This document shows, in pieces, positions 15,901-41,072 of a stretch of DNA of 64,000 nt. The notes under the pieces are model-generated. The model had not been told where the DNA came from and ran no database searches. It saw only the letters and a program-made list of their open reading frames with translations. A program made the translations under genes and the position numbers. This DNA is from an uncultured Verrucomicrobiota bacterium. Lineage in GTDB: Bacteria; Verrucomicrobiota; Kiritimatiellia; CAIQIC01; Lenti-01. Within the stretch, counting starts at the first letter, position 1; each line of letters starts with the position of its first letter. The DNA lies in assembly GCA_937872095.1 (NCBI GenBank), contig CALMNW010000070.1:30542-94541 (forward strand), given 5' to 3'.

Positions 15901-18900
15901 GTCTGGCGCGACCTGAACGCCGACGGCGTCCAGAACGAAACGAACATGGGCATCTCGGGCGTGGCCGTTTCCCTCACGCCACCGGCCACCATCGATCTGG
16001 GGAACGGTCTGGGCGCGGCGATCACGAACTGGACGGATGCCTCGGGCTACTATCTGTTCGAATCGATCCCGGCGACGGGCGTCTACACGGTGCGGGTGGT
16101 GACGGCCACGCTGCCGGGCGGGTCCGGGACCAACACCTTCGACGAAGACGGGGTGCGGGACAACGCGCACGCCGTCTATCTGGACATCTATTCCGCGCCC
16201 GCCAGCACCAACAACGTGCACTTGACGACGGACTTCGGCTACCAGACGGGCACGACCATCGAAGGCACGATCTGGCACGACGTCGACCACGGCATGGAGA
16301 CGAACCGCGAGGCGGGCGAGGACTGGCTGACGAACGTGACGGTCTATCTGTGCGCGAGTCCCTCGCCCTGCGGTCCGGGCGCGTCGCTGGCAACGAACGT
16401 CGCGACCACGAACGGCTACTTCCGCTTCGTCGGCAGCTACACGGGCACCTACACCGTGATGGTGGCGACCAACACGGGCATGCTGTCGACAGGCACGTGG
16501 AACCTGTCGTGGGACACGGACGGGACCAACACGGCGAACTATTCCTCCGTGACGGTGGTGAGCGGCGGCGTGGCGCGCGCGGACTTCAGCTATTGGCGGA
16601 CGGGACCCTACGCGATCGGCGACACGCTGTTCTACGACTGGGACGGCAACGGGACGCAGACGGCCACCAACGAGGAGGGCATCGCCAACGTCACGGTCTA
16701 CCTCTACGAGGACGCCAACGGCAATGGCGTGGTGGACGTCGCGACGGATGCGCTGGCCGGCATCACGGTCACGGCGACGAACGGCTATTATTCCTTCACC
16801 AACCTGTTCGCGACGAACACCTACCTGGTCGTCGTGGACCGGAACGATCCGGACCTGCCGCCGCTCTACAACGTCACCGCGGATCCCTGGGGGGCGAAGG
16901 ACGGGCGCAGCGTGGTCACGATCACCAACGCCAACGACTTCGCGCAGGACTTCGGCTTCCAGCCCTACGGCACCGGCGCCATCGGCGACACGGTCTGGCG
17001 GGACCTGAACGCGGACGGCCTCCAGTCCGGCGTGCAGGAAACCGGCATCGCGAACGTCCTGGTCAGCCTCTACGCGGACCTGAACGGCGACGGCACGTAC
17101 GTGCTGCTGAAGACCACGAACACCGGTTCGTCGGGCACCTACCTGTTCGGCTCGCTGCCGGACGGGAATTACCGGGTGGTGGTGGATGCGGCCGACGCCG
17201 CCCTGCCGCAGGACGCCTTCGGCAACGTCTACTATGCCAGCACGGCCACCTCGCACGACGTGACGATCAGCGGCGGCAGCACTTATCTGGACGCCGATTT
17301 CGGCTTCGCGCCCTACGCCGCGATCGGCGACACGATCTTCTGGGACGCCAACCGCAACGGCACGCAGGACTACTCCGAAGAGGGCGTCTCCGGCGTGGTG
17401 GTCCGGCTGTATGTCGACGCCAACGCCAACGGATTCTATGACGCCGGCGAAACGCTGGCCGCCAGCCGGACCACGGACGTCAACGGGCTGTATCTGTTCG
17501 CCGGGCTGGCACCAAGCAACTACGTGGTTGTGGTGGACGGGGCCAGCGGTCCGCTGGCGGGGGCGTTCCTTTCCGCCGATCCGGATTCCAACGGACTGCC
17601 CTGCGAAGATCTCGACGTGCCGCAGCCGTGCGACGGCGAACACGGCCGGTCTCTGGTCAACGGCCAAAACTACATGGGCGCCGACTTCGGCTATATTCCG
17701 CCCGGCGCGGTCATCGGCGACACGCTGTGGATCGATACGGACGACGACGGCGTCCGCGACGACAACGAGAGCGGCATCGCCTACGTGTCCGTGGTGCTTT
17801 GGTCCAACGGCGTCGCGATCGCCACGAACGAGACCGACGGCGACGGGTGGTATTACTTCAGCAACCTCGGCGACGGTACTTTCCAAGTATCCGTCGTCGG
17901 CAGCGATCCGGACTTCCCGCCGGGCTTGACCCAGACCTACGATCCCGACGGCAATCTCGACGGCGTCGGCACCAATATCGTGGTGTCCGGCGGCGCGGTG
18001 ACGTCCGTCGGGGGCGTGCCCTGCACGGACTGCGACTTCTCGATCGATTTCGGCTACCGCTACGCGGGCAACAACAGCCTGAGCGGCACGATCGGCTTCG
18101 ATGCGACGCCCTACGACGGCGTGCTGAACGGCACGAACTGGAACGGCGTGGCGGCCGACGAGGTGGCCTACGCGAACGTCCAGGTCTATCTCTATCTCTG
18201 GAACGACGACGGCGACGGCATCGTCGAGGCCGGCGAATACGTCCAGGTGTCCACGACGACCACGTCCACCAACGGCGATTATGCGTTCACGGGCCTGCCC
18301 AACGGCGACGGCGACGACCAATACGTCGTGGCCAGCCTCGCGCCGGAAGACTACCTGAAACTCACTACCACCAATGGGTCCATCGCCGGGGTGGGGGTGG
18401 TCGAGACCGCGAACGCGCAGGGCAACACGGTGTCGGCCTATCTGACGGTCGCCATCGCGCCGGAAATCAACGGCATGGATTTCGCCTATCGCTCGACCAA
18501 GGTGTACGATTACGGCGACCTGCCCCAAAGCTACCAGACGGAGTTTCCCGGCGGCGCGCGGCACATGGTGACCTACCTGACGAACCTCTATCTCGGCGCC
18601 GCGGTCGACGTCGAACTCAACGGCGTGCCCTCGTCGCTGGCGGACGGCGACGACCTCGCCGGCGGGGACGACGAGGACGGCGTGGACCTGATCGGCCGCT
18701 GGGCGCCGGGGGTGGACGGCGGCACCGTGGAGGTGACGGTGGGCAAGGGCACCGGCTGGCTGCTGGGCTTCATCGATTTCAACGGCGACGGCGATTTCAA
18801 CGACGCCGGAGACTTGGCCGTGAACCAAGCCGTGGCCACCAATGGCGGTCCGGGCCTCGACGGCGTCTACGAGATCCCGCTGGCCGTTCCGGCGGGCAGC

Positions 18901-21900
18901 CTGAGCACGACGAACAGCACCGTGCTCTACGCGCGGTTCCGCCTGTTCCCCAGCGCGCCGTTCCTGCCGCAACTGGCCTATTCCGGCACGGCGGACAACG
19001 GCGAGGTCGAGGACTACCGCTGGATTCTGCACGTCATCGGCGGAACCGTTTTCGCGGATGCCGACGCGGATTCCCTCTTCTCCGGCGGCGACACGATCAT
19101 CCCGGGCACGGTCGTGCATCTCTACGACGGCCTGGGCGCCCTGATCGAATCGACGGTGACGGACCTTTCCGGAAACTACGCGTTCGTCGGCCTGCCGGAC
19201 GGGAACTACCGCGTCGAGATGGAGACGCCGGCCGGCACCGCCGCCATCCTCGACCGGGATGGCAACGGCAACGGCGCGACGAACATCGCGGTGACCGTGG
19301 CGGGCGACAGCGTGTTCACGCGGGATTTCCTGGTGGACAACGGCGCGTCCTTGGCTGCGATCAGCGGCACGGTGTTCGAGGACGACGGCTACGGCGTCGT
19401 GGGCGACGGCGCCTTCAACGCGCCCGACCGGCCCGTGCCCGGCACGACCGTTTCGCTCTACCGCGACATCGACGGCGACGGCGTGGCCGATCTGAACGAG
19501 TGGATGGCCGACGTCGTCGCGGACGTCGGCGGCGCCTACGCCTTCGCCAACCTGCCGCCCGGCGATTACCTCGTCGTCATGACCACGCCCGCCGGCGCCA
19601 CCAGCATCACCGACGTGGATGGCAACGGCAACGGTTCCGCGCTGATCGAAGTGCCGCTGGCCGGCGTGGACGTGACCGACCGGGATTTCCTGGTGGACGG
19701 CGCGCCGCCGGCCGCCCTGAGCGGTCTGATTTGGTTCGACGCCAACGACAACGGCATCCGCGCGGGATCGGAAACCAACCGGTTCGCGAACATTCCGGTC
19801 TATCTGCTCGACGTCGATTCCAACGTCGTGGCGGCGGTCACGACCGGCGTGAGCGGCGCGTATGCCTTCACCAATCTGGCGCCCGCGAACTATTTCGTGC
19901 GTTTCGATTTGGCGGCGCTCAGCACCAACGACTATCGCATCGCCTCGCCCTACCAGGGGACCAACACCACCCTCGACAGCGATGTGATCCAGGGACAGGT
20001 GGGCGACAACGCCCAAACCGCCGTGCTGCTGCTGAGCGTCGGCCAAAACCAGGAAAACGTCGACTTGGGCTTGACGCCGCCGCCGCCGACCTGGGCCGCC
20101 GTGGCCGATGTCTGGGGCGAATGGACGGAGGGCGAGGGCCGAGTGGTTTGGCACACGAGTTCCGAATTCGGCACGGCCGGCTTCTTCGTCTATCGCGTCG
20201 ATCCGGAGACGGGGGCGGAAACGCGCCTGAACGACGTGCTGGTGCCGTCGGCATTCGAACCGTCCGGTTCCATCTATTGGCTCGCGGATCCGGACGCCGC
20301 GGAAGGCGGCGACGGGACCTACCGGCTGGAAGAAGTGGAACTGTCGGGCCAAGTCATCGACGTCGGCATGCAGGAAATCCGCTTCGCCGCGCCGCCGCCG
20401 GCGGCGAAGGCGGCCCGGGCGGAAATCCGGGCGGCCAAGGCCGTCGCGCCGGTCACGTACGCCGCGGCCAAACTGGCTGGCCCATCGAGCGTGCTCAAGG
20501 TGTCGTTCCGGGACGAAGGCATCTACGGGATCGGCCTGCAAGCCATCGCCGACGGCATGGGCCTGGCGTTGGCGGACGTGCAGGCGCTGGCCGCAGCGGA
20601 TGGACTGCGAATTTCGGCCCAAGGCGCGGCGGTCCCGGCAATCTACGACGCGGCGCGCGCGCGGCTGGTCTTCTGCGGCCAGGCGACGGACAACTGGTAT
20701 GCGCGCGACAACGCCTGCCTGATTTCGCAGGCTTCCGGCGCGGCGATGCCCCGGCGCGAGCCGGGCGCTTCGTCGGGCGGCACGGTTTTTCCGGTGCAGG
20801 TTCGTTTCGAGCAGGACCGCTATCCGTTCGACAGCGCGCTGATCAAGCCCGACGACTTCTATTACTGGGACTACGTGATCAGCGGCACGAATGCCGCCTC
20901 GCTGCGCAGTTTCCCGCTGGATTTGGCCGGCCGCACCGGCAACGTGGTCCTGAAGATCCGGCTGATGGGCTGGTCGAGCACGACCAACGATCCGGACCAT
21001 CTGGCGGAAATCCGCTTCAACGGAACGACGGTGGGATCGGTCGCCTTCGACGGGCAAGACGCGGTCGAAGCCGAGGTGACGATTCCGTTGGCCGCGGTCT
21101 CGAACGGCGCGAACGTGGTGGCGGTGAAAGGCGTGTTGCCCGAAGGCCGCAGCCACAGCTACTTCGTGGTGGATTGGATCGAAGCGTCCTTTGAACGCGA
21201 TCTGGCGCCGATGAACGGGACGGCGGACTTCCGCGCGGGCACCGCCGCGGCCGTATCCGCCGCGGCGTTCGCCGCGCCGCTGGCCATGGCGTTGGACGCG
21301 GCCGGGAATCCGACGTGGATCGCCGACGAGACCGGAACGCTCCCCGCCAAGGCGTGGGCCGTGGCTGCCGAGAACGAACGTTTCGCGGTCGCGGAAGCGG
21401 ATGGCATTCCGCTGCTTGCGCCCGAGCCGGTCAATGCCGCCCCGTGGTTCCTGGCGGCAACCAACCGGATCGACTATCTGGTCGTCGCTTCGCGCGCGCT
21501 GGCCGCCGCGGCGCAGGAATTGGCGGATTATCGCGCGAGCCAGGGGTTGCGCGTGGGCGTGGCGACGTTCGAGGACGTCTGCGATTGGATGGCGGCCGGC
21601 CTGTATACGCCCGAAGCGATTCCGGCCTTGCTTTCGTACGCCGCCGGCACGTGGGCGGAAGCGCCTTGGATGGTGGTGCTGGCGGGCAACGGGCACTACG
21701 ACTATCTCGGCGCGCTGAGCAACGAGGTCAACCACGTCCCGCCCATGATGCTGCAAACGCTGGATGGACTTTTCGCCTCCGACGGACTGCTGGCGGACCT
21801 CGACGGCGACGAGCTGCCCGATGTTGCCATCGGCCGCCTGCCCGCGCTGACCGCCGCGGATCTCGCCGCCATGATCGCCAAGATCAAGGCCAGCGAACTC

Positions 21901-22956
21901 GGTTTCGGGGAAACCTGGCAGAACCAGATCGTGTTGTCCGCCGACAAGGCCGATCCCGAGGCCGGCGATTTCCGGGCATCCAACCAGCAGCTGGCCCTGC
22001 AGGCGGACGCGACGCATCCGGTGGCGCAGCAGATCGATCTGGATTCCATGGCGATCGCCGCGGCGCGCAGCGCCGTCTCGAATTGGTTCCGAAACGGAGC
22101 CGGATTCATCCATTACACCGGCCACGGCAATGCCACCGCGATCGGTTCCCTGAGCACGAAATTGCTGGCGGCGGCGGACGTCGGTCGGATGGCCAACGCG
22201 ACGCGGCCCCCCGCTTTCGTGGCGCTGAGCTGTCTGGTCGGCCGGTTCGAGGCGCCGGGGGTGCAGAGCCTCAGCGAACTCCTGCTGCGGCGCGCCGGCG
22301 GCGGGGCCGTGGCGGTCTGGAGCGCGTCGGGCATGTCCCGCAATGCGCCGGCCACGGAAATGGCCGAGGCGTTCTATCGTGCCGTGGTGCAGGATGGCGC
22401 CGGCACCTGGGGACTCGCGATTCTCCGCGCCCGCCGCTCGCTGGCCAGCACTTGGGCGACCAAGGACACCTTCGCCGTCTACAATCTGTTCGGCGATCCG
22501 GCGCTGCGGATGGCCGGCAACGTGGGCGCGTCCGCCGCCGCCGCGACTTTTGCCCAATGGCGCTGGGAACGTTTTGCGCCGGCCGATTTGGCCGACGCGG
22601 CCACAAGCGGAGCCACGGACGCCAATTTCGCCGAATATGCGCTCGGCGGAAACGATCAGGTCTTGGCCGAACTGCCGGAATTCGGATTCCCGTTGCCGGC
22701 GCTCGACGGCGTGGCGACCCGCGCGGAAAGCGCTGCCGGCGTCGTGCTGCGCTGGAAACGGCGCATCCAGCGCGCAGACATCCAGTATTTGTTGTTTATT
22801 TCGGAAAATCTGGAAGAATGGGAAACGGATCCGGACGATGTCCAAACGGTGGGCGTCGAACCGGATGCCGACGGCATCATGGAAACCGTGCGCACGCGGG
22901 TGAACCGCCCGTGGGCGGAACGGGTGTATATCGGCGTGAAAGCGAAACGGAAATAG
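12994..22956 (+). CDS. Giant (3320 aa) secreted surface protein with a signal peptide, DUF11-like and many SdrD-B-like/Cna-B-type Ca-binding beta-sandwich repeats (GDxVWxDLNADGxQ), and a C-terminal peptidase C25 (gingipain-like) domain
   Basis: The signal peptide reads MKKRITKRSGVFTASFLLAWSSLPAWA. There are more than 15 repeats of the IGDTxWxDxNxNGxQD motif. The C-terminal region has a His (IHYTGHGN) and a Cys (VALSCLVGRFE) in the arrangement of the C25 catalytic dyad. A fully open antisense ORF on the opposite strand was rejected. Confidence 0.9.
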   Translation: MKKRITKRSGVFTASFLLAWSSLPAWAANPDGDLRIEVASAYNFVVDSNVESPSTYAPRAAYLSATFYNDGTNALTNVWAYIGDYTNGTPGTYPSRAQAPYIGPLPGDAFALTHEGGAAGATDATRYLGTILPGESKTVYWLVSYPNVDEDGKTVTGGIKPDDDLWLQYGIWGTALDAGTPLEADVTRTVTMRNEISAMANKIFPNGANKVPQEYQDLLELYQPSWTNTADDGSPGTVIATEGVWYDLGNVGAGFDNDGDLIPDRNAWLQPVGDAALFDSSCFRLVHTYALVIVKLNDGTETIYNVEDQLYFENVPENNRGAVGYVRYEFMAMRGGCSSALTPYQEVASGFDNEKFNGDYGAYLGQGLTSLEAHMSVAKSVDHPFIAPGETLSYTIAFTNPGPVSVGDPDANAGLVIREHIPHGTLYVGLSSTASNTLPGGVGAYTMLYSTNNGATWQGTEPADPATVTDVQWWLSDPLATNVAGSVKMQVTVQTPFTNAPFITNQACATIAGEGELACGETTTYVSGTNRLGDLVWADNGAGGGLLGNQIQDGTEPGLSNVTVWLFYDANTNGLYDAGDLYYGSNVTSASGAYLFTNLPDGKFVARVDAWDPDLPLGYTPTTATNVAADLDSAHATTNTISFLAADFGFAPALSLKKTLTSTNAFREGQYVTYSLAVSNNLPGNGTGGGSLATYYAWATNGVTGAEWLSSTNAYVPPGPDGLYASNNFKAASKTFVLDRFPLGAQPGGISNVSVVMPIVVVPLLLNPDTFDVHVDQLSPAQRIFTGNYMATNLVTGTMTIPMTGTFAWAWADFATNYTVTLTCAKGGGVGGSIWLLLDAVGFKIQSTATTGVGSATTTLKPVPLTDCYDADQFQFVGAVPPQTGSLTNGTAPNATGTLYWADLGPIYPGGTSTVAVTFKLLKPTGNTNSVVTNVAWATNALFLGGKPANNATSLVVSTQLPAATVGDYVWRDLNADGVQNETNMGISGVAVSLTPPATIDLGNGLGAAITNWTDASGYYLFESIPATGVYTVRVVTATLPGGSGTNTFDEDGVRDNAHAVYLDIYSAPASTNNVHLTTDFGYQTGTTIEGTIWHDVDHGMETNREAGEDWLTNVTVYLCASPSPCGPGASLATNVATTNGYFRFVGSYTGTYTVMVATNTGMLSTGTWNLSWDTDGTNTANYSSVTVVSGGVARADFSYWRTGPYAIGDTLFYDWDGNGTQTATNEEGIANVTVYLYEDANGNGVVDVATDALAGITVTATNGYYSFTNLFATNTYLVVVDRNDPDLPPLYNVTADPWGAKDGRSVVTITNANDFAQDFGFQPYGTGAIGDTVWRDLNADGLQSGVQETGIANVLVSLYADLNGDGTYVLLKTTNTGSSGTYLFGSLPDGNYRVVVDAADAALPQDAFGNVYYASTATSHDVTISGGSTYLDADFGFAPYAAIGDTIFWDANRNGTQDYSEEGVSGVVVRLYVDANANGFYDAGETLAASRTTDVNGLYLFAGLAPSNYVVVVDGASGPLAGAFLSADPDSNGLPCEDLDVPQPCDGEHGRSLVNGQNYMGADFGYIPPGAVIGDTLWIDTDDDGVRDDNESGIAYVSVVLWSNGVAIATNETDGDGWYYFSNLGDGTFQVSVVGSDPDFPPGLTQTYDPDGNLDGVGTNIVVSGGAVTSVGGVPCTDCDFSIDFGYRYAGNNSLSGTIGFDATPYDGVLNGTNWNGVAADEVAYANVQVYLYLWNDDGDGIVEAGEYVQVSTTTTSTNGDYAFTGLPNGDGDDQYVVASLAPEDYLKLTTTNGSIAGVGVVETANAQGNTVSAYLTVAIAPEINGMDFAYRSTKVYDYGDLPQSYQTEFPGGARHMVTYLTNLYLGAAVDVELNGVPSSLADGDDLAGGDDEDGVDLIGRWAPGVDGGTVEVTVGKGTGWLLGFIDFNGDGDFNDAGDLAVNQAVATNGGPGLDGVYEIPLAVPAGSLSTTNSTVLYARFRLFPSAPFLPQLAYSGTADNGEVEDYRWILHVIGGTVFADADADSLFSGGDTIIPGTVVHLYDGLGALIESTVTDLSGNYAFVGLPDGNYRVEMETPAGTAAILDRDGNGNGATNIAVTVAGDSVFTRDFLVDNGASLAAISGTVFEDDGYGVVGDGAFNAPDRPVPGTTVSLYRDIDGDGVADLNEWMADVVADVGGAYAFANLPPGDYLVVMTTPAGATSITDVDGNGNGSALIEVPLAGVDVTDRDFLVDGAPPAALSGLIWFDANDNGIRAGSETNRFANIPVYLLDVDSNVVAAVTTGVSGAYAFTNLAPANYFVRFDLAALSTNDYRIASPYQGTNTTLDSDVIQGQVGDNAQTAVLLLSVGQNQENVDLGLTPPPPTWAAVADVWGEWTEGEGRVVWHTSSEFGTAGFFVYRVDPETGAETRLNDVLVPSAFEPSGSIYWLADPDAAEGGDGTYRLEEVELSGQVIDVGMQEIRFAAPPPAAKAARAEIRAAKAVAPVTYAAAKLAGPSSVLKVSFRDEGIYGIGLQAIADGMGLALADVQALAAADGLRISAQGAAVPAIYDAARARLVFCGQATDNWYARDNACLISQASGAAMPRREPGASSGGTVFPVQVRFEQDRYPFDSALIKPDDFYYWDYVISGTNAASLRSFPLDLAGRTGNVVLKIRLMGWSSTTNDPDHLAEIRFNGTTVGSVAFDGQDAVEAEVTIPLAAVSNGANVVAVKGVLPEGRSHSYFVVDWIEASFERDLAPMNGTADFRAGTAAAVSAAAFAAPLAMALDAAGNPTWIADETGTLPAKAWAVAAENERFAVAEADGIPLLAPEPVNAAPWFLAATNRIDYLVVASRALAAAAQELADYRASQGLRVGVATFEDVCDWMAAGLYTPEAIPALLSYAAGTWAEAPWMVVLAGNGHYDYLGALSNEVNHVPPMMLQTLDGLFASDGLLADLDGDELPDVAIGRLPALTAADLAAMIAKIKASELGFGETWQNQIVLSADKADPEAGDFRASNQQLALQADATHPVAQQIDLDSMAIAAARSAVSNWFRNGAGFIHYTGHGNATAIGSLSTKLLAAADVGRMANATRPPAFVALSCLVGRFEAPGVQSLSELLLRRAGGGAVAVWSASGMSRNAPATEMAEAFYRAVVQDGAGTWGLAILRARRSLASTWATKDTFAVYNLFGDPALRMAGNVGASAAAATFAQWRWERFAPADLADAATSGATDANFAEYALGGNDQVLAELPEFGFPLPALDGVATRAESAAGVVLRWKRRIQRADIQYLLFISENLEEWETDPDDVQTVGVEPDADGIMETVRTRVNRPWAERVYIGVKAKRK

Positions 22957-22958
22957 CG

Positions 22959-23255
22959 GTGGTTCGGAACGCTTCAGGGACCTATCGGATAAACGGCAAG
23001 GTGGTTCTGCGCCGGATCGGCGAAGACCGCCTGCTGGTGCCGGTGGCGGGCGCCGTCGCGCGCGAATGCTGCGTGTTTCCGGTCAACGAAACGGGCGAAT
23101 TCATCTGGACGCGGCTGGCGCGGGGCGAACCGCTCGGCGCGATCGCGGCGGCGCTGGAAGCGGAGTTCGCCGTGGCGCCGGAAGCGGCCTTGGCCGATTG
23201 CCGCGAATTCGCGGAGAAACTCGTGGCCCAGCGGTTGCTGGAGGTGGCGGGGTGA
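22959..23255 (+). CDS. PqqD-family protein (RiPP recognition element-type peptide chaperone)
   Basis: The 98-aa product (YRINGKVVLRRIGEDRLLVPVAG...VFPVNETGEFIWTRLARGEPLGAIAAALEAEFAV...ADCREFAEKLVAQRLL) matches the PqqD architecture. The GTG start lies 2 nt after the giant gene's stop. Confidence 0.8.
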   Translation: MVRNASGTYRINGKVVLRRIGEDRLLVPVAGAVARECCVFPVNETGEFIWTRLARGEPLGAIAAALEAEFAVAPEAALADCREFAEKLVAQRLLEVAG

Positions 23256-24343
23256 CTCGCGCCGTCCAAGCCGCGACCGGGGAGTGGACTGCGGGATTTC
23301 GTGCGCGCGCCGCCCGGTCTCGCTTGCCCGTTTCCGCCACGCTGGAACTGACGCGGCGCTGCAATCTGCGCTGCCTCCACTGCTATCTGGGCGACCAGGC
23401 GGACCACCTGCGCGACGAGGACCGCGAGCTCGCGACCGCCGCCGTGCGCGCGGCGATTTCCGACTGGGTCGAAGCGGGCTGTCTGTATCTGACGATCACC
23501 GGCGGCGAGCCGTTGCTGCGGCCCGATTTCGCCGAAATCTATCGCCATGCGCGCAATTTGGGCCTGGTCGTGACGGTGTTTTCCAACGGAACGCTGGTGA
23601 CGGCCGGGATCGCGGAGTTGTTCCGCGAGTGGCCGCCGCGCAAGGTGGAAATCAGCCTCTGCGGCGCGACGGCGGAAACCCACGACGCGATCGCCGGCGT
23701 GCCGGGCGCGCACGCGCGGACTTGGGCGGGGATCCGCCGCCTGCAGGCCGCCGGCGTGCGCCTCGCGCTGAAAACGGTGTTGCTGAAGCGCAATCTCGGC
23801 GAATTGCCAGAAATGGAACGCCAGGCCGCCGAAATCGGCGCGGCCTTCCGCCACGACGCGGCGATTTTTCCCTGCCTGGACGGCGGCTCGCGCGCGCCGC
23901 TGGCGCTGCGCGTTTCGCCGGCAGAGGCCGTGCGGGCGGACATGGCCACCGCGGCCCGCCGCGCCATGTGGCGAGCCAAGATCGAGCAGACCGCGGGCGC
24001 TCCCGCCGACGACCGGCTGTACGCCTGCGCCGCGGGCCGGTCCGCGTTCTGCGCCGACCCGTTCGGCGGACTTGCACCGTGCCTGCTGGCGGAAAATTAC
24101 CGGTGCGAACCCGCCGGCCGCCCGTTCCGGGAAATCTGGAACGGCGAACTGGCCGCCATCCAGGGCCGGAAGCGTTCGCGGAACGACGTCGTTTTCGCCG
24201 GCGAGATGCGCGGCGCCTGCGCGCATTGTCCGGCGTTCAACCGGATCGAAACCGGCCATGAAGAAATGGAATCGGATTACGTGAAAAAGAGCACTTGGTT
24301 GCGCTACGGCGCGGCGATGGAGGATGCAGATGAAGCCCAATGA
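23252..24343 (+). CDS. Radical SAM enzyme with a C-terminal SPASM/twitch Cys-rich domain (peptide-modifying maturase, PqqE-like class)
   Basis: It has the CNLRCLHC CxxxCxxC motif, a GGEPLL motif, and a C-terminal CAAGRSAFCADPFGGLAPC...C...CAHCP cluster. The GTG start overlaps the PqqD stop (GTGA). Confidence 0.85.
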   Translation: MTRAVQAATGEWTAGFRARAARSRLPVSATLELTRRCNLRCLHCYLGDQADHLRDEDRELATAAVRAAISDWVEAGCLYLTITGGEPLLRPDFAEIYRHARNLGLVVTVFSNGTLVTAGIAELFREWPPRKVEISLCGATAETHDAIAGVPGAHARTWAGIRRLQAAGVRLALKTVLLKRNLGELPEMERQAAEIGAAFRHDAAIFPCLDGGSRAPLALRVSPAEAVRADMATAARRAMWRAKIEQTAGAPADDRLYACAAGRSAFCADPFGGLAPCLLAENYRCEPAGRPFREIWNGELAAIQGRKRSRNDVVFAGEMRGACAHCPAFNRIETGHEEMESDYVKKSTWLRYGAAMEDADEAQ

Positions 24344-24515
24344 TGAAAACCGTTCGCCTGCGGGCTTGGATCTGACCGTGCGCCGTCCGTACGAAAAACC
24401 CGACATCGAACGCGTGGATCTGGCGTTGGCCGAGACGCTGTCGCAGGGCTGCAAACTGGAGTCCGACAGCGGTTGCGTCGGCCCGCCGATCACGGCGTAC
24501 GAGGGAGGATCTTGA
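24330..24515 (+). CDS. Candidate RiPP precursor peptide (61 aa; alternative ATG at 24324)
   Basis: A GGAGG Shine-Dalgarno at 24317-24321 sits 8 nt before the ATG, inside the 3' end of the rSAM gene. The product MKPNDENRSPAGLDLTVRRPYEKPDIERVDLALAETLSQGCKLESDSGCVGPPITAYEGGS has a leader segment (KPDIERVDLALAETL) that resembles the PqqA leader motif (KPAFIDLRLGLEVTL) bound by PqqD, and its core contains C-x7-C. Confidence 0.5.
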   Translation: MKPNDENRSPAGLDLTVRRPYEKPDIERVDLALAETLSQGCKLESDSGCVGPPITAYEGGS

Positions 24516-25414
24516 GGAACGTCGGCCATCTAGACGTCGGTCCGCTGCGTTTCGCGCTGCGGACCGCGGAGCTTGGCGCGGTGCGATATTCCGATCCGGC
24601 CTACGGCGGGTTTTTCTCCGCGGCGGGGCCGGGGGAGCCCTTGGCCCAATTGCCGGTGGATCTGGTGCGCGGCGTGCCGCCGCCGCCGGCCGGCGCGCCG
24701 TTGTGGCGGGCGGGGGACCACTGGGCCGTTTGGGAAGACGGCGCCGATTTGCTTTTTCACGTCGGCTTGCGGGCGCCGGAAACCGCGCGGCTGGCCTGCC
24801 GCGTCGCGCGCGATTTGACGCGCGCGGAATTGGCGCGCTCTTCCGCGGAGCGCGAGGATGGCATTTGCGAAGCGCCCTTGCGGTATCCGCTGGACCAGAT
24901 CCTGTCGTGGGGATTGCTGGCGCAGATCGGCGGAACGTTGCTGCACGCGGCCGTGGCGGTGAAGGACGGCGTCGGGCGCGTTTTCACGGGGCGCAGCGGC
25001 GCGGGCAAGTCCACCATCTCGGGTCTGCTGCACGCCGCCGGCTGGCGGATCCTGAACGACGATCGCGTCGTCGTGTTCCGGCGCGGCGGCGAATGGCGCG
25101 TGGCCGGCACGCCGTGGCACGGTTCGGGTCGCTTCGCCGAAGCGGCGGAAGTTCCGCTCGCCGGCATCCATTTTCTGCAGAAAGCGGCGGAGTGCCGCCG
25201 GGAGTCCATGTCGGCGTCGCAAATTCGGTTGGCGTTGCTGGACGTGGCGGCGGTGCCGTGGTTCGAAGAGACCTGGGCGCAGGGAACGCTCGATGGGCTG
25301 GAGCGGCTGACGCGCGAAGTCGAGATCGCGCGGTTTCATTTCCCGAAAACCCCGGCGGCGGTCCGGGAACTGGCCGGGATTCAGGAATTCCGCGGGGCAG
25401 GAGCCTGCGCATGA
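24512..25414 (+). CDS. HprK-related kinase (HPr kinase C-terminal domain-like P-loop protein)
   Basis: GRSGAGKST is followed by LNDDRVVV, matching the HprK P-loop/ADD pattern. The start is uncertain; a TTG at 24512 overlaps the peptide stop (TTGA) and follows GGGAGG. An antisense ORF was rejected. Confidence 0.65.
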   Translation: MRNVGHLDVGPLRFALRTAELGAVRYSDPAYGGFFSAAGPGEPLAQLPVDLVRGVPPPPAGAPLWRAGDHWAVWEDGADLLFHVGLRAPETARLACRVARDLTRAELARSSAEREDGICEAPLRYPLDQILSWGLLAQIGGTLLHAAVAVKDGVGRVFTGRSGAGKSTISGLLHAAGWRILNDDRVVVFRRGGEWRVAGTPWHGSGRFAEAAEVPLAGIHFLQKAAECRRESMSASQIRLALLDVAAVPWFEETWAQGTLDGLERLTREVEIARFHFPKTPAAVRELAGIQEFRGAGACA

Positions 25415-25833
25415 AACGCCTGGCGGAAATGGATCAACATGCGGCGCAACGGGCGCAGGGCAAAACGCAAGAGGCCGGTCCAACGGGCGCGACGGGTGTC
25501 CAAGAGCCGGATCTTCCCGTTTTGACAAGAACTTGCGGCGACGCCGATCACGTCGGATTTGGGGATCCAGTCGCCGCCCTTCACGGCGGCATCGCCGACG
25601 GCAAAAACGCGATTTGTTCGTTTTTCGTTAATTGTGCATCGGTGCAAGACAAGCCGGCCGTTAATTTGATAAAGTATAACGCTTCCACGGTGGATCGTGC
25701 CGACATCCAGCGGTTGGATGAGAACGCCGTCTCCGTCGCGGATGGTCGGATGCATGCTGGGCCCTTGAGCGTGAAAGGTGACGGGCGTGCGCTGCTGGAG
25801 CAGCGCGGCGAGGATGGTTTGGATATCGCGCAT
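25381..25833 (-). CDS. S24/S26-family serine peptidase (signal-peptidase-I/LexA-like), a candidate leader peptidase
   Basis: The 150-aa product has the GPSMHPTI nucleophile motif (GxSMxPT). Its 3' end overlaps the HprK-like gene by 34 nt (convergent). The plus-strand frame over this region has no recognisable domains and was rejected. Confidence 0.65.
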   Translation of the reverse strand: MRDIQTILAALLQQRTPVTFHAQGPSMHPTIRDGDGVLIQPLDVGTIHRGSVILYQINGRLVLHRCTINEKRTNRVFAVGDAAVKGGDWIPKSDVIGVAASSCQNGKIRLLDTRRARWTGLLRFALRPLRRMLIHFRQAFHAQAPAPRNS

Positions 25834-25872: not shown

Positions 25873-27756
25873 ATGAGCAACACAAGCATCGTTTTTCGGG
25901 CGGGGCGGCTGGCGCTGGCGGGCTGCCTGCTGTCCTGGACGGCGCAGGCGGCCAAGCCTACGGGCGAGGCGATCGTGGCCGCGATGACCGGCCGCGCCCA
26001 AGCGCGCGTGTTCACCGCGCCCGTCCACGAAGGGCGCACGGAGCTGATGGATTTGTTCGAGGGGGCTTCCGTCGGCGAGAACGTCCGCGTGATCACCGGT
26101 AAGGATGGCCGCCTGTGCCTGGTGTGTTCGCCGGGCGCGATCCTGTGCGTCGCGCCGAACACCGAATTCGTCATCGATCAATTGCGCCACACGGCGGACG
26201 GCTTGCCGGAGAGCGAAGACGATTTGATCCGCCGCATCCACGTGCGCCTGCTCAAAGGCCGCCTGCGCGTGCAGGCGGGAACGCCCCTGCCGACGCTGGA
26301 TCTGCGGATCGATACGTCGGCCGGCCGGGTCGAAGCCCACGGGGGGGCGTTCGTGGTCGCGCAAGGCGAACAAGATCGCTGGCACGTCGCCTGCGAAGCG
26401 CACGAATTGGCGGTCGTTCCCCGCAACGGCAGCCGCACGGAACTGAAGGCGAACCAAGCCGCCTGGCTGGCGGCCGACGGCGAAGAGCGCGGCGCCTTCC
26501 GCTGGGAAGACATCGGCGAAAACCCGGAACTCTACCAGTTCGAGCTGTGCAACGCCTTTTTCGCGGATCTGGAGCCCTTCATCCATCACGAGCGGCCGTT
26601 CGACCGGGAAGGGCTCGGGCAATATATCGGCGCGACCGCGCCGTTCCTCGATCTGGATGCCGGCGCGCTGGTGACGGATGCCAGCCCCACGATCCGGCCG
26701 GCGGTGGCGGCCGTTCGGCCCGCCGCCTTGCCCCGGCCCGGAGAAGGGGCGCCGGGCGGACGTTGGGATGAAATCCGCATCTGGAAGTGGTTCGACGATC
26801 TCGGCACGGTGAAAGGGGTGAACTATATCCCCCGCACGGCCGTTAATTCGGTCGAGATGTGGATGGAAGACACTTTCGACCCCGATACGATCGACGAAGA
26901 ACTGGGCTGGGCGCGGGACGTCGGCTACACCGGCATCCGCGTCCAACTTCAATTCGCGGTATGGCAGGACGATCCCGACGGATTTCTCGACCGGGTGGAT
27001 CGGCTGCTCGAGATCGCGGCGAAACACGGGTTGCGCGTGGTGCCGGTGCTGTTCGACGACCTGAATCGGGCGGGCCAGGCCCCGCACGTCGGTCCGCAGC
27101 CCGAACCGCTTCCCGGCGAACACAACGCCCGGTGGGTGCCCAGTCCCGGCGCCGCTGCGGTGAAGGATCGCGGCCAGTGGCCCGCGCTGGAAAAATACGT
27201 CAAGGACGTGATGGGGAAATTCAAGCGCGACCGGCGCGTCCTGTACTGGGATCTCTACAACGTGGTCGGCAACGGCGGGCTGGGGGAGGAGTCGCTGCCG
27301 CTGCTGGATCAGACGTTCAACTGGGCGCGTGCCGTCGAACCGTCGCAGCCGCTGGCCGTGCCGGCCTGGCGGGAATTCGGCGGCGCGATGACCGCCCGCG
27401 GACTTGAGCGATCGGACCTGATCACCTTCCAGAGCTTCGACGACGCCGAGAGCGTCGCGGCGCGCCTCCAGTTGCTGCAGCGCTACCAGCGCCCCATCAT
27501 CTGTTCCGATTGGCTGATGCGCCAAACGGGCAACGACTTCGAAAACGTGCTGCCGCTGTTTTCCACCTATCGCGCCGGTTGGTTCAACCAAGGGCTGGTC
27601 AGCGGCAAGACCCACCGGCCCATCCAGGAAGCCGCCTATCGGACGGACAAAGATCCCGACCTCTGGCAGCAAGACGTGTTGCATCCGGATGGAACCCCGT
27701 ACGACCACAAGGAAGTGGAGCTGATCCAGGGCTTCCGCTATCTCGAAGCCCCTTGA
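25873..27756 (+). CDS. Secreted protein with an N-terminal FecR-like domain and a C-terminal glycoside-hydrolase-like TIM-barrel domain
   Basis: A signal peptide (MSNTSIVFRAGRLALAGCLLSWTAQA) begins at the ATG at 25873. A FecR-like segment (VRVITGKDGRLCLVCSPGAILCVAPNTEF) follows. The C-terminal half (GVNYIPRTAVNSVEMW...GIRVQLQF...KHGLRVVPVLFDD) is GH-like. The longer plus-strand ORF from 24703 was truncated to this start. Confidence 0.7.
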   Translation: MSNTSIVFRAGRLALAGCLLSWTAQAAKPTGEAIVAAMTGRAQARVFTAPVHEGRTELMDLFEGASVGENVRVITGKDGRLCLVCSPGAILCVAPNTEFVIDQLRHTADGLPESEDDLIRRIHVRLLKGRLRVQAGTPLPTLDLRIDTSAGRVEAHGGAFVVAQGEQDRWHVACEAHELAVVPRNGSRTELKANQAAWLAADGEERGAFRWEDIGENPELYQFELCNAFFADLEPFIHHERPFDREGLGQYIGATAPFLDLDAGALVTDASPTIRPAVAAVRPAALPRPGEGAPGGRWDEIRIWKWFDDLGTVKGVNYIPRTAVNSVEMWMEDTFDPDTIDEELGWARDVGYTGIRVQLQFAVWQDDPDGFLDRVDRLLEIAAKHGLRVVPVLFDDLNRAGQAPHVGPQPEPLPGEHNARWVPSPGAAAVKDRGQWPALEKYVKDVMGKFKRDRRVLYWDLYNVVGNGGLGEESLPLLDQTFNWARAVEPSQPLAVPAWREFGGAMTARGLERSDLITFQSFDDAESVAARLQLLQRYQRPIICSDWLMRQTGNDFENVLPLFSTYRAGWFNQGLVSGKTHRPIQEAAYRTDKDPDLWQQDVLHPDGTPYDHKEVELIQGFRYLEAP

Positions 27757-29036
27757 TGAAACGGATCGCCGCCATCTGGTTTGCCCTGGCGGGTGCCGTA
27801 TTCGCGGCACCCACCCTCGGCATGGCCGCGGACGACGGCTATGCCGCCGGTTTCTATACCCGCGGCGTCGATGCGGCGTCCTATATCGACCAAGGCGGCG
27901 CCGTCGTCGATCCGTTCTACGTGCCCGCCAAGACCGGGGCGTTGCTGCCGCGCGTCAGTCTGGCGATCGCGCGCGACGACAACGTCTTTCTCGACGCGAC
28001 CAACCAGACGGTCGGAACCACCATTTCGCTGGCGCCGGGTTTGCTGGCCATCTGGGGTCGGCCGGCGGACAACCACGTCTACGCCGATTACGGCCTCATC
28101 CTGCCCCTTTACGAGAGCGAAGAAGGATTGAACGACCAACCGAGCCATTTGCTGCGGCTGGGCAGCGTCTACCGCACGGGCAAGAGCCAGATCCAGGGGC
28201 AGGTGGGTTTTCGCCGCCTGGAAGACGTCGATACGGTGGTGGGCGCGCGCGTGGCCAAACGGGATCTTTCCGCCGATCTGGGCGTGGAACATCGGATTTC
28301 GGGCAAGTCCAGCTTGGGCCTGCAGGGCCGGGCGGAAATGCACGAATTCGATGCGGAGAACTACCTCGACTACAACCGCTACTACGGGGCCGGCCGGCTG
28401 TATCACCGCGTGTCGCCCAAGAGCCAGATGTTCGTCCAGGGCGGCCTGGGACGCGACGATCCGCGCCAGCCGGAAGATCGCGCCGCCGCCGCCGATTTCT
28501 ACGATCTGTCGCTGGGCGTTCGCGGGAAGCAGTCGCCCAAGTTCAACGCCGCCGGCCGGGTGGGCTACATGTGGCGCCGCTACGACGAAGAATCGCGCGA
28601 CGACTACGCCCATTGGATCGCCTCGCTGAAAGCCGAGAGCGCGCCGTTCGGCCTCGCGACCTTCACGGGCGAATTGTATGCGGATATCCGGCCCGCCGTC
28701 GATGCGGACGCCGTCGACGTGGTGGATCAAGGCGTCGTTTTCGGCGCGAACCGGCGGCTGTTCAGCGAGCGCTTGCGCGGCAATGCCTCGGCCACGTTCG
28801 GCCAAATCGACTATTCCGGCGGCGCCGTCCCGGAGGGCGGCGGACTGGACGGGCGGACGGATCGCTATTGGGGATTTTCCGTCGGCGTGGATTGGTGGAG
28901 CAAAGAGCGCTTTTCCGTCGGCGTGGCGTATTCCTACATGCGTCGCGACGGCGACGTGGAAGGTTCAGCGGAAACGCGGGATTCGACCTCGTACGAACAG
29001 GGACGCTGGACCTTGCGCGCCAGCTGGAACTATTGA
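27756..29036 (+). CDS. Outer-membrane beta-barrel protein (EPS-associated)
   Basis: It has a signal peptide (MKRIAAIWFALAGAVFAAPTLGMAADD), alternating amphipathic strands and a C-terminal aromatic residue (SWNY). It overlaps the upstream stop as ATGA. Confidence 0.7.
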   Translation: MKRIAAIWFALAGAVFAAPTLGMAADDGYAAGFYTRGVDAASYIDQGGAVVDPFYVPAKTGALLPRVSLAIARDDNVFLDATNQTVGTTISLAPGLLAIWGRPADNHVYADYGLILPLYESEEGLNDQPSHLLRLGSVYRTGKSQIQGQVGFRRLEDVDTVVGARVAKRDLSADLGVEHRISGKSSLGLQGRAEMHEFDAENYLDYNRYYGAGRLYHRVSPKSQMFVQGGLGRDDPRQPEDRAAAADFYDLSLGVRGKQSPKFNAAGRVGYMWRRYDEESRDDYAHWIASLKAESAPFGLATFTGELYADIRPAVDADAVDVVDQGVVFGANRRLFSERLRGNASATFGQIDYSGGAVPEGGGLDGRTDRYWGFSVGVDWWSKERFSVGVAYSYMRRDGDVEGSAETRDSTSYEQGRWTLRASWNY

Positions 29037-29092: not shown

Positions 29093-30106
29093 ATGGCGTC
29101 GCGTGTTGACAGATTCGGGTGGTTTCTGGGGTTCTTGTTGGCCGGTCTCGCGTTCGGCTGGATGGCGGGTTGCGCCAGCAACGATCCGTTGCCGCTTCCG
29201 CCCGGCGGCATTCTGAGCGAATCGACCGCCGATCGGTCGGCGGCCGCGGAGCGGACGCCGGCGGCTCCCGAAGCCGTTGGCGATCCACAGACCGAGCAGC
29301 CGGCGGAACCAGAAACGGCGCAAACCGCGGCCGCGGCCAAGAAGCTCGCCGCCGCGGAAAAAGCCCAGCGCCGCGAGGCGGAAAAGCAAGCCGCGGCGGA
29401 AGCCAAGCAAGCGGCGGCCGAAAAGAAAGCCGCCGAGAAGCTGGCCAAGAAGGAAGCGAAGCAAGCCGCGGCCGCAGCCGAAAAACTCGCCGCCGCGGAA
29501 AAAAAACGGCAACAGGCCGAAAAAAAGGCGGCGGCCAAGGCTCTGCGCGCGCAACCGAAAGACTGGGCCGCGGAACCGGCGAAACCGGAAAAGGCGTCTG
29601 CCCAATACGTGCTGCAGGCGGGCGACGAAATCGAGATCCAGGTCTATCGCGAACCGGAATTGTCCGGCACGTTCAAGATCAACCCGTCCGGCGATGTCCG
29701 CCATTCGCTCGTGGGGGCGGTTCCCATGGCGGGGCAAACGCTCGAAGAGGCGGAGGCGCAATTCACCCGGAAGCTGGCCAAGGATTATCTGGTCGATCCC
29801 CGCGTCATTTTCAAGCTGTTGTCCACCCAGAGCTCGCAGATCGTCTTGATGGGCGAAGTCAAGAAACCCGGCGTCTATCCGCTGCCCTTCGGCGAAACCA
29901 TGACGCTCCTGCAAGCCATCGCCGGTGCCGGGGGTTTCACCGATTTGGCCAGTCCGGATCGCGTCCGCATCGTGCGGCGGCTGCCGGACGGCCATCAAAC
30001 GACGCTGAAATTCCGCGTGTCGGATCTGCTGGGCGGAAGGGGCAAGCAGCAGGACGTGCCGCTCGAGCCGAACGACGTCATCATGGTGCCGGAAGTGCTG
30101 TTTTAA
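29093..30106 (+). CDS. wza: Polysaccharide export lipoprotein, Wza-like (Poly_export + SLBB), with an Ala/Lys/Glu-rich linker
   Basis: The lipobox reads GWMAGC. The Poly_export motif is YVLQAGDEIEIQVYREPELSGTFKINPSGDV, and the SLBB motif is VLMGEVKKPGVYPL. Confidence 0.85.
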   Translation: MASRVDRFGWFLGFLLAGLAFGWMAGCASNDPLPLPPGGILSESTADRSAAAERTPAAPEAVGDPQTEQPAEPETAQTAAAAKKLAAAEKAQRREAEKQAAAEAKQAAAEKKAAEKLAKKEAKQAAAAAEKLAAAEKKRQQAEKKAAAKALRAQPKDWAAEPAKPEKASAQYVLQAGDEIEIQVYREPELSGTFKINPSGDVRHSLVGAVPMAGQTLEEAEAQFTRKLAKDYLVDPRVIFKLLSTQSSQIVLMGEVKKPGVYPLPFGETMTLLQAIAGAGGFTDLASPDRVRIVRRLPDGHQTTLKFRVSDLLGGRGKQQDVPLEPNDVIMVPEVLF

Positions 30107-33583: not shown

Positions 33584-33584
33584 C

Positions 33585-34417
33585 ATGTCCCGCTCCGTGC
33601 GCGAATACGTCCGCCGGCCCCGCACCGGCTGGTTCGATCTGGCCCTGGGCGAGCTGTGGGAATACCGCGACTTGCTGGGCGCGCTGGCGTGGCGGAACCT
33701 GACGGTGCGCTACAAGCAGAGCCTGCTCGGCATCGGTTGGGCCGTGCTCAAGCCCGTGATGCAGATGATCGTGTTCAGCGTCGTGTTCGGGCGTCTGGCC
33801 GATTTGCCGTCGGACGGCATGCCGTATCCGGTTTTTCTCTATGCCGGCCTGCTGCCGTGGACGTATTTCTCCACGACGATCACCAGCGCCTCGGGCAGCC
33901 TGCTCGGCGGCGGCAACATGATCAACAAGGTATATTTTCCCCGCATGATCCTGCCGTTCTCCTATCTGTTCACCGGCCTGCTCGATCTGGCGCTGGCCAT
34001 GGTCGTCCTGTTCGGCATGATGGTTTGGTATCGCGCCGACATGGCGTTCGGGCCGCAGATGCTGCTGTTCCCGATCTTTCTCGTGCCGGCCGTCGCCTGC
34101 GCCGGCGGACTATCGCTGTGGCTGTGCGCTTTGGCCGTTCGCTATCGCGACGTCCACCATCTGGTGCCGTATCTGCTGCAGCTCGGCATGTTCGCGACGC
34201 CCGTGGTTTACGCCGTCCAGCTGCTGCCGGAACGGTTTCGCTGGCTGCTGCAGCTGAATCCCATGACGGGCGTGATCGAAGGCTTCCGTTGGGCGCTGCT
34301 CGGCAAACCGGTCGAAGGATGGGGGTTGCTGGTTGGCGGCTTTGGGGTGGCGCTGCTTTTGCTGTTTTCGGGCATGGTCTATTTCCGGCGCGTGGAAAGG
34401 ACGCTGGCGGACGTGAT

Positions 34418-34421
<4 letters not shown>
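33585..34421 (+). CDS. ABC-2 type polysaccharide/O-antigen exporter permease (Wzm/KpsM-like)
   Basis: It has six TM segments and an ABC-2 signature region, and is paired with the downstream ATPase. The SD reads GAGAGGAAG. Confidence 0.85.
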
Positions 34422-35676
<1,255 letters not shown>

Positions 35677-35680
<4 letters not shown>

Positions 35681-41071: not shown

Positions 41072-41072
41072 C

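Follow-up and report, generated by a model that had tools for sequence, protein, structure and literature searches.

The 64,000-nucleotide stretch of DNA analyzed here (the window) comes from an uncultured Verrucomicrobiota bacterium of the Kiritimatiellia. It carries four consecutive genes encoding a PqqD-family protein, a radical S-adenosylmethionine (rSAM) enzyme, a peptide of 61 amino acids (aa) and an HPr-kinase-like protein of the ScmC family, and this contribution deals with the peptide as the probable substrate of the three proteins encoded around it. Its open reading frame (ORF) begins with the ATG at 24330 and ends with the TGA at 24513-24515, and its product in the ORF list of the window is MKPNDENRSPAGLDLTVRRPYEKPDIERVDLALAETLSQGCKLESDSGCVGPPITAYEGGS; an earlier first-pass annotation, made by a model from the letters of the DNA, had quoted the same product, and both its coordinates and its sequence are confirmed. 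The stop codon of the PqqD gene overlaps the start of the rSAM gene (GTGA), the 3' end of the rSAM gene (stop at 24341-24343) shares 14 nucleotides (nt) with the peptide ORF, and the last codons of the peptide, GAG GGA GGA TCT TGA (24504-24515), hold the TTG at 24512 from which ScmC is translated, the peptide stop overlapping this start. In public gene calls, the peptide, the rSAM enzyme (GTG at 23252, 363 aa) and ScmC (TTG at 24512, 300 aa) have exactly these boundaries. Within 22.5-26.2 kb of the window, no promoter-like sites were found, and terminator-like matches numbered 3 against 4.7 expected in shuffles. The PqqD, rSAM, peptide and ScmC genes constitute a tightly coupled operon, in which the peptide is translationally coupled on both sides.

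The Shine-Dalgarno (SD) sequence of the peptide gene lies inside the rSAM coding sequence, ahead of the rSAM stop codon, as the first-pass annotation had it, but the GGAGG is at 24319-24323 and not at 24317-24321, and 6 nt rather than 8 separate it from the ATG at 24330. Another in-frame ATG, at 24324, stands immediately against the SD; the 61-aa public gene call and the N-termini of homologues (MKPND..., MNP...) agree on a start that fits ATG 24330 and not 24324. The arrangement GGAGG-N6-ATG occurs 3 times in the window where 1.97 are expected, and at least three times in 31 of 100 shuffles. There is thus no enrichment, the view that such an SD is unlikely to arise by chance does not hold, and we dropped the SD as statistical evidence for the gene. 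In 12 or more of 19 homologous loci, an SD of the GGAG type lies 5-12 nt 5' of the peptide start.

It is conservation that identifies the ORF as a gene. Among 5.8 billion proteins searched, 67 homologues with lengths of 47-63 aa were found (58-131 bits); the few whose source is named stem from metagenome-assembled genomes (MAGs) of Kiritimatiellia, and none is functionally annotated. In pairwise comparisons of the window with five loci over 44 conserved codons, the ratio of non-synonymous to synonymous substitution rates (dN/dS) was 0.02-0.26, with a proportion of differing synonymous sites (pS) of 0.36-0.73 and dS saturated, which indicates strong purifying selection on the peptide frame. The ORF is thus conserved, a point on which the first-pass annotation had made its prediction depend. 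The scenario that it named as refuting, an unconserved ORF that is nothing but the tail of the rSAM gene read out of frame, is excluded because the frame is under such selection, and the overlap amounts to those 14 nt only. The GC content at third codon positions (GC3) is 0.75 in the peptide frame, the highest among the plus-strand frames (the others have 0.65 and 0.53), but by itself it is weak support for a gene because one minus-strand frame is equally high (0.76). We regard it as virtually certain that the peptide ORF is a genuine gene; the window contains one copy, which scores 78 bits against the superfamily profile.

The peptides form a broad family without an existing name. When 1.84 billion cluster representatives were searched with a profile built on the peptide, 114 clusters matched at E <= 1e-3, nearly all of them 45-72 aa long, and no Pfam or NCBIfam model matches the peptide or 10 of its distant relatives. 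The family consensus is PY-x-KP-x-h-x-R-h-[DE]-L...E-T-L-x-x-G-C-K, accompanied by one or more additional Cys and a Gly-Ser at the C-terminus. In the Kiritimatiellia homologues, 17 variable residues are followed by the nearly fixed RRPYEKPEIKRVDLALAETLSQGCKLExDxxCVGPPITAYEGGS. Across the aligned superfamily, P24, L31, C41 and K42 are invariant and Y21, E35, L37, C49, G60 and S61 are conserved at 92% or more. The spacing between C41 and the next Cys ranges from 5 to 19 residues in the superfamily and is most commonly 7 (111 of 217 members), so that the Cys-x7-Cys core (C41/C49) noticed by the first-pass annotation is both present and the prevalent form; there are two or three Cys in all, the third being found in about a quarter of the members. 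The last residue is Ser in 203 of the 217 (Gly-Ser in 193) and Thr in 12, which makes 215 with either; the remaining two are a seemingly truncated sequence and a member with a Cys-Arg end.

AlphaFold2 (AF2) gives the peptide alone no stable fold (pLDDT 66.8, pTM 0.24), as may be expected of a substrate peptide. The layout, with a variable N-terminus, a leader-like motif and a Cys-containing C-terminal part, supports a reading of the family as precursors of peptides that are ribosomally synthesized and then post-translationally modified (RiPPs), to judge from the alignments. Two of the matched proteins are of a different nature. P0098 is a frameshifted fusion of an rSAM tail, the peptide and ScmC. 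P0082, a protein of 1823 aa with at least 7 repeats of RPYKSPEIEGISL (...RPYKSPEIEGISLATD...), matched profile positions 16-35 with E = 9e-12; it was rejected as an unrelated repeat protein whose resemblance we judge to reflect chance or low complexity, and it is a warning that the leader motif by itself lacks specificity.

The first-pass annotation had described the leader as PqqA-like. The shape of the motif, aromatic-x-K-P-x-h-x-x-h-x-L-x-L-x-E/T-L, is indeed shared with PqqA, and this resemblance is kept, but the comparison was not accepted as proof of homology to PqqA. PqqA models do not match the peptide (Pfam at E <= 10; NCBIfam at E <= 0.01), and hhalign, in which the PqqA side consisted of four sequences, aligned Y21-L37 with PqqA W2-L18 over 17 columns at E = 0.022 and a probability of 2%. 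The Glu-x3-Tyr pair that is cross-linked in PqqA is absent, as T-L-S-Q comes after E35 and position +4 is not Tyr. The peptide of the window is also three times longer than PqqA and differs from it by the Cys core and the Gly-Ser end. As systems, the two are alike in combining a small peptide with a PqqD chaperone and a SPASM-type rSAM enzyme, and PqqD is known to bind the N-terminal part of PqqA (PMC10906245). Unlike the pyrroloquinoline quinone (PQQ) system, the locus has no pqqB or pqqC, its neighbours being the genes of ScmC, an S26 peptidase and a FecR-like protein.

The rSAM enzyme carries the CX3CX2C motif at C37/C41/C44, which is invariant in 16 of 16 homologues. In its C-terminal part, the only invariant Cys residues among these 16 are those of C259-X12-G-X4-C277 and C323-X2-C326 (CX12GX4C plus CX2C). 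A full SPASM motif has the form CX9-15GX4C ... CX2CX5CX3C ... C and binds two auxiliary clusters; the Pfam SPASM model finds no match in the rSAM protein, and the full 7-Cys motif is not present in it. By its Cys pattern, the protein probably resembles enzymes of the twitch or reduced-SPASM kind that have a single auxiliary cluster. Its full-length NCBIfam matches are sub-threshold: MftC with 109.8 against a cutoff of 265 (residues 88-397) and PqqE with 84.6 against 381. BlsE, SkfB and PqqE are its sequence matches in the PDB. Kiritimatiellia are rich in sulfatases, and conversion of Cys to formylglycine, the reaction of anaerobic sulfatase-maturating enzymes (anSMEs), was considered for this reason; it was rejected because there is no CxPxR motif and because the top matches of the rSAM protein include no anSME model.

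The ScmC-family protein has the Walker A sequence GRSGAGKST and a second motif at N182-D183-D184-R185, and G-x-S-G-x-GK-x-T and NDDR are invariant in 42 homologues. Its alignment with Lactobacillus casei HprK/P covers the Walker A and LxxDDR segment, and the models Hpr_kinase_C, HprK_rel_A and ScmC give sub-threshold matches. The AF2 model (pLDDT 92.4) contains an extra N-terminal beta-domain of about 120 aa, and the best PDB matches of this model found by Foldseek are the ATP-dependent phosphoenolpyruvate carboxykinase (PEPCK) and HprK/P; solved lasso-kinase structures did not turn up in either the sequence or the fold searches made with ScmC.

We propose that the peptide is the ribosomal precursor of a four-gene maturation cassette composed of PqqD, rSAM, peptide and ScmC. 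That it is a substrate of the cassette we hold to be very probable; the mechanism as a whole, outlined below, is rather probable. PqqD would bind the leader motif and hand the peptide to the rSAM enzyme, which, with one radical cluster and probably a single auxiliary cluster, would modify the GCK...C region. A Cys-derived cross-link is the leading guess because conservation in the core is confined to the invariant Cys-Lys and the second Cys; the installation of such a cross-link by the rSAM enzyme is put forward tentatively, with somewhat less than even chances. ScmC would then phosphorylate the side-chain hydroxyl of the terminal Ser. It was shown that HPr-kinase homologues of lasso peptide clusters phosphorylate the precursor's C-terminal Ser at its side chain and recognize little else (PMC8498205). 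The D158A/D159A mutant of one of them, PsmK, is inactive, and the nucleotidyltransferase PsmN subsequently adds a hexose to the phosphate (PMC6993621). With this precedent, the HprK-type fold and motifs of ScmC and the terminal Ser of the peptide, we give phosphorylation of that residue by ScmC an even chance; the hydroxyl would be the functional group, because Thr is the only recurrent substitute for the terminal Ser. An NTP_transf_5 nucleotidyltransferase may then attach a sugar to the phosphate. PsmN is, we presume, a member of this family (PF14907). The window encodes one such protein 31 kb 3' of the cassette, in the same polysaccharide locus, and tblastn links its gene with those found in two distant loci described below; it is a possible partner enzyme of the cassette. 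The best candidate for leader removal would be the anchorless SipW-type S26 peptidase encoded next to ScmC. Since the core is highly conserved and the cassette is fixed between a C25 protein and polysaccharide-export genes, the product is suggested to serve the cell envelope or matrix and not to be a variable antibiotic.

The surroundings of the cassette were followed in 36 loci (L001-L036), brought together by twelve exact look-ups and a single scan across species-representative genomes. All three enzyme genes go with the peptide in most of these loci, some contigs being too short to show whether they are present. PqqD, rSAM and peptide genes are conserved together in more than 25 loci from several phyla, and in L001, L002, L004-L008 and L010-L021 the order is PqqD-rSAM-peptide-ScmC with overlaps of 4-17 nt, usually 4 nt. 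A longer order is shared as well: the giant C25 gene, PqqD, rSAM, peptide, ScmC, S26 (on the opposite strand), FecR-like, EpsL-like outer-membrane protein, Wza and Wzc. It was found in Kiritimatiellia and Verrucomicrobiota MAGs, in Victivallales, in bins assigned to the 'PVC group' (PVC, Planctomycetes-Verrucomicrobia-Chlamydiae) and in Tichowtungia, and it persists where the giant protein is about 35% identical. The set recurs in distant members of the family from Desulfatibacillaceae, Phycisphaerae and metagenomes. Farther away, one locus is rearranged to C25 protein, rSAM, peptide, PqqD and ScmC, and a Phycisphaerae locus has a CLIPPER+C25 protein followed by the cassette. L032 has PqqD, rSAM, peptide and ScmC followed by NTP_transf_5, and L035 combines a giant protein (32% identity), the cassette, the S26 peptidase, Wzc and NTP_transf_5. 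A Desulfatibacillaceae cassette is present without a C25 neighbour.

In the window, the stop codon of the giant gene is 2 nt before the PqqD start. The giant protein has 9 SdrD_B repeats, GEVED and CarboxypepD_reg domains and, at aa 2828-3173, a complete Peptidase_C25 domain, whose best NCBIfam match is the sortase PorU domain of the type IX secretion system (T9SS), with 133 bits against a cutoff of 420. By analogy with clan CD peptidases, His3044 and Cys3080 form a putative catalytic dyad; both residues are present in 26 of 27 tblastn hits, the truncated L030 aligning with the Cys only. A C25 protein lies directly 5' of the cassette in nearly all related loci (Kiritimatiellia, Victivallales, Phycisphaerae). 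Because this adjacency persists across phyla and gene orders, and because orphan copies of the peptide agree with it, a functional link of the peptide system with the surface protein and polysaccharide machinery is suggested. The S26-like gene, found at the same position in most related loci, including L035, encodes a protein without an N-terminal membrane anchor and converges on the 3' end of the ScmC gene with an overlap of 34 nt. The first-pass annotation had overlooked ScmC as the next gene, the invariant Cys41-Lys42, the pairing of a terminal Gly-Ser/Thr with a kinase homologue, and the linkage to C25/PorU-like and polysaccharide-export genes. The coordinates of all these features are collected in Table 1.

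Table 1. Features of the peptide locus and its conserved neighbours in the window (positions counted from the first nucleotide of the window)
Feature	Coordinates	Strand	Evidence
Giant secreted protein, 3320 aa, signal peptide	12994..22956	+	Pfam Peptidase_C25, 228 bits
PqqD-family protein, 98 aa, GTG start; presumed peptide-binding chaperone (RiPP recognition element, RRE)	22959..23255	+	Pfam PqqD, 47.5 bits, E = 2e-12
Radical SAM enzyme, SPASM/twitch group, 363 aa	23252..24343	+	Pfam Radical_SAM, 76.5 bits
GGAGG Shine-Dalgarno sequence within the rSAM coding sequence, 6 nt before the peptide ATG	24319..24323	+	
Predicted precursor peptide gene, 61 aa plus stop	24330..24515	+	Homologues, dN/dS, public gene call
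Leader-like motif R18-S38 (RRPYEKPDIERVDLALAETLS)	24381..24443	+	Superfamily alignments; hhalign against PqqA
G40-C41-K42	24447..24455	+	Cys41 and Lys42 invariant in 63/63 aligned superfamily members
Cys49, second conserved Cys	24474..24476	+	97% of aligned members
C-terminal Gly60-Ser61, predicted phosphorylation site	24507..24512	+	Family C-termini
ScmC-family HPr-kinase-like P-loop protein, 300 aa, TTG start	24512..25414	+	PF27840, precomputed for the identical protein P0181
S26 (SipW/ER-type) signal-peptidase-like protein, 150 aa, GPSMHPT and LHR motifs	25381..25833	-	Sub-threshold Peptidase_S24, 22 bits; sigpep_I_arch, 35.6 bits
FecR-domain protein, 627 aa, conserved neighbour	25873..27756	+	Pfam FecR, 24 bits; synteny
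EpsL/BBP2_2-like outer-membrane beta-barrel protein, 426 aa, conserved neighbour	27756..29036	+	
Wza-like polysaccharide export protein, conserved neighbour	29093..30106	+	Poly_export/SLBB in orthologous genes; synteny
Wzc-like chain-length/tyrosine-kinase protein, conserved neighbour	30126..32273	+	
NTP_transf_5 'uncharacterised nucleotidyltransferase'	55655..56746	-	Pfam PF14907, 92.3 bits

Several observations weigh against the proposed maturation of the peptide. The enzymology of the cassette is one that we infer from homology and gene context. The resemblance of the leader to PqqA is statistically weak, and in the Kiritimatiellia group conservation spans the whole length from R18 to the C-terminus, so that a boundary between leader and core is not evident. 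The reaction type cannot be read from homology because the rSAM and PqqD proteins are far under every curated equivalog cutoff. The relation of ScmC to HprK is distant (E of about 1e-3 by sequence, Foldseek TM-score of 0.28-0.5), and it is through HprK only that ScmC is likened to the lasso kinases, so that its substrate could be another one. The codons for E58-G59-G60 (GGAGGA, 24504-24509) are also the SD of the ScmC gene, and the C-terminal E-G-G-S of this genome is thus doubly constrained, by the peptide and by the SD; this overlap is not general, as the C-terminal GS is retained in several relatives with a gap of 22-130 nt before ScmC. Finally, the peptide and its enzymes do not always go together: in L003 (6001-6156), an orphan copy of 51 aa that is missing the variable N-terminus lies between two giant C25 genes, in L022 (2361-2558), another orphan copy lies between a giant gene and wzc, neither copy having an adjacent PqqD, rSAM or ScmC gene, and the cassette of L027 is without ScmC.

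Other explanations of the same locus have to be weighed against a phosphorylated, cross-linked peptide. One would bring the cassette close to mycofactocin and PQQ: the rSAM reaction would take place at the C-terminal Gly-Ser (for example, an oxidative decarboxylation or cross-linking), a small molecule would be excised, and ScmC and the nucleotidyltransferase would act on this product. In the mycofactocin precursor MftA, the residues that react are likewise found at the very C-terminus, and glycosylation of the product follows; among the NCBIfam models, MftC aligns best with the rSAM enzyme over the full length (110 bits), followed by PqqE, the conservation of the core across phyla is cofactor-like and not antibiotic-like, and there is no dedicated exporter within the four genes. 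Both alignments, however, remain far under their cutoffs (110 against 265 and 85 against 381), the peptide has no aromatic residue at its C-terminus or close to it, and homologues of MftD/E/F and PqqB/C are not in the conserved neighbourhood. The exchange of Ser for Thr at the end and the variability of the residues before the Gly fit a hydroxyl-directed kinase better than a radical reaction at C-alpha or C-beta, and this reading would offer no explanation for the invariant Cys41-Lys42, 19 residues from the end. We consider such a cofactor pathway unlikely. Less probable still is the secreted antimicrobial RiPP, a bacteriocin of the sactipeptide or ranthipeptide kind, which the first-pass annotation implied. 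A Cys-containing core beside a twitch/SPASM-type rSAM enzyme and an RRE would be in keeping with it, as would the fact that SkfB, a twitch enzyme that forms thioethers, is one of the best sequence matches in the PDB, but the cassette has no pair of transporter and immunity genes, the full set of SPASM Cys residues is absent, and the core is nearly invariant in Kiritimatiellia and set in a conserved envelope and polysaccharide locus. Every carrier seen is an uncultured anaerobe from one of a few phyla, and synteny argues for a housekeeping-like role.

It is also conceivable, if improbable, that the matured peptide, phosphorylated or phosphoglycosylated at its C-terminus, is a partner of the PorU-like C25 domain, as its substrate, acceptor nucleophile or tether, and links the giant protein to a surface polysaccharide. 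The C25 protein is directly 5' in Kiritimatiellia, Victivallales, 'PVC group' bins and Phycisphaerae even at 32-37% identity and with a rearranged cassette, and the orphan peptide copies of L003 and L022 adjoin giant C25 genes. PorU is the best curated match of the C25 domain, neighbouring C25 proteins keep the putative His/Cys dyad, and genes for Wza, Wzc, the EpsL-like protein and NTP_transf_5 belong to the same locus. Against this stand the PorU score of 133 where the cutoff is 420, the peptide's want of a signal peptide or an identified export route, and the Desulfatibacillaceae cassette, which has no C25 neighbour; the support comes from gene context alone, and adjacency could mean co-regulation. 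A small protein which is never modified, and which merely shares the operon as a regulatory or accessory subunit of the rSAM enzyme or ScmC, would account for a conservation from R18 to the C-terminus that is unusually even for a RiPP and for the peptide copies without adjacent enzymes. This we find quite improbable: the peptide alone has no predicted stable fold, its layout is that of a precursor and it constantly adjoins a PqqD-type RRE protein, whose known role is the binding of precursors, and in the case of L003 the orphan's 474-kb contig carries a ScmC gene elsewhere.

The proposed maturation by PqqD, rSAM and ScmC can be compared with several known systems. The SynChlorMet (Scm) cassette is similar in composition, with a ScmC-family HPr-kinase-like protein, a PqqD homologue and a PqqE-like rSAM enzyme, and PF27840 is assigned to the protein of the window. 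The scores are, however, far below the equivalog cutoffs (29.1 against 125 for ScmC, TIGR04249; 18 against 100 for ScmD, TIGR04248; 92 against 400 for ScmF and 74 against 400 for ScmE, the models of ScmE/F being TIGR04250/04251), there is one rSAM gene here instead of two (ScmE and ScmF), and the taxa and the C25/polysaccharide context differ. To our knowledge, no precursor has been described for the Scm cassette, and one is identified here. The lasso peptide clusters of paeninodin (PadeK) and pseudomycoidin (PsmK/PsmN) share with the window a precursor ending in Ser, a homologue of HPr kinase that has a DD motif, an RRE of the PqqD type and, in some clusters, a nucleotidyltransferase; correspondingly, Ser or Thr is the last residue of 99% of the peptides of the window family, the Walker A and NDDR motifs are retained in ScmC, and NTP_transf_5 is present. 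Unlike these clusters, the cassette loci examined have no cyclase (asparagine-synthetase-like) or B/B2 protease and have an rSAM enzyme instead, the core contains conserved Cys and not a ring-forming Asp/Glu, and ScmC has its extra N-terminal beta-domain.

With mycofactocin (MftA/MftB/MftC), the cassette has in common a PqqD-like chaperone, an rSAM enzyme that aligns best to MftC, a conserved core and a functionally critical extreme C-terminus; it differs by the C-terminal Gly-Ser in place of Gly-Val-Tyr, by the sub-threshold MftC score, by the absence of MftD, MftE and MftF and by the presence of a kinase-like protein. Sactipeptide and ranthipeptide enzymes (SkfB, AlbA, CteB, PapB) likewise act on Cys cores, depend on an RRE for recognition and are twitch/SPASM rSAM proteins, SkfB and AlbA being among the matches of the window enzyme. 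In contrast to them, the RRE is a separate protein here, there are 4 invariant auxiliary Cys, a kinase is added, and the first Cys of the core is followed by a conserved Lys. The cassette appears to work like a PqqD/rSAM RiPP pathway, and the peptide has the general traits of a precursor. It is neither a PqqA, nor a mycofactocin, nor, with no cyclase or B protease, a lasso system; by its scores and its single rSAM gene it is no equivalog of the SynChlorMet cassette, with which it shares the ScmC Pfam family. Literature searches on the peptide family, on SynChlorMet/ScmC cassettes, on ScmC with radical SAM, on Kiritimatiellia RiPPs, on HprK-related proteins and on C25 with Kiritimatiellia found nothing relevant.

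The peptide would supply the missing substrate of the cassettes of ScmC/HprK-like, PqqD and rSAM proteins, which hitherto had only uncharacterised database names, and its family can be recognized by the leader motif, the Gly-Cys-Lys and the terminal Gly-Ser/Thr taken together. If Ser61 is indeed phosphorylated, phosphorylation of a C-terminal Ser would be a trait not of lasso peptides alone but of radical SAM RiPPs as well. The fixed place of the cassette beside C25 and polysaccharide genes hints at a role in the envelope or matrix, in phyla whose handling of surface proteins is almost unstudied. Should the peptide prove to work with the C25 domain, as a transpeptidase, in processing the giant protein or tethering it covalently to the polysaccharide, an improbable case, this would be a RiPP-based surface anchoring peculiar to PVC bacteria and without parallel in the sorting systems known so far.

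The polysaccharide locus continues 3' of the conserved neighbours listed in Table 1. It includes an ABC-2 permease (33549-34421), a STELLO-like glycosyltransferase (35647-36696), a fusion of glycosyltransferases of the GT4 and GT2 families (40944-43199), a further GT4 enzyme (51961-53103) and a weakly sulfatase-like ORF (53303-55648). On the 3' side of the polysaccharide genes, two ORFs lie on the plus strand of the window: one, at 57089-58393, encodes a bacterial pre-peptidase C-terminal (PPC) domain, and the other, at 59890-61086, HEAT repeats.

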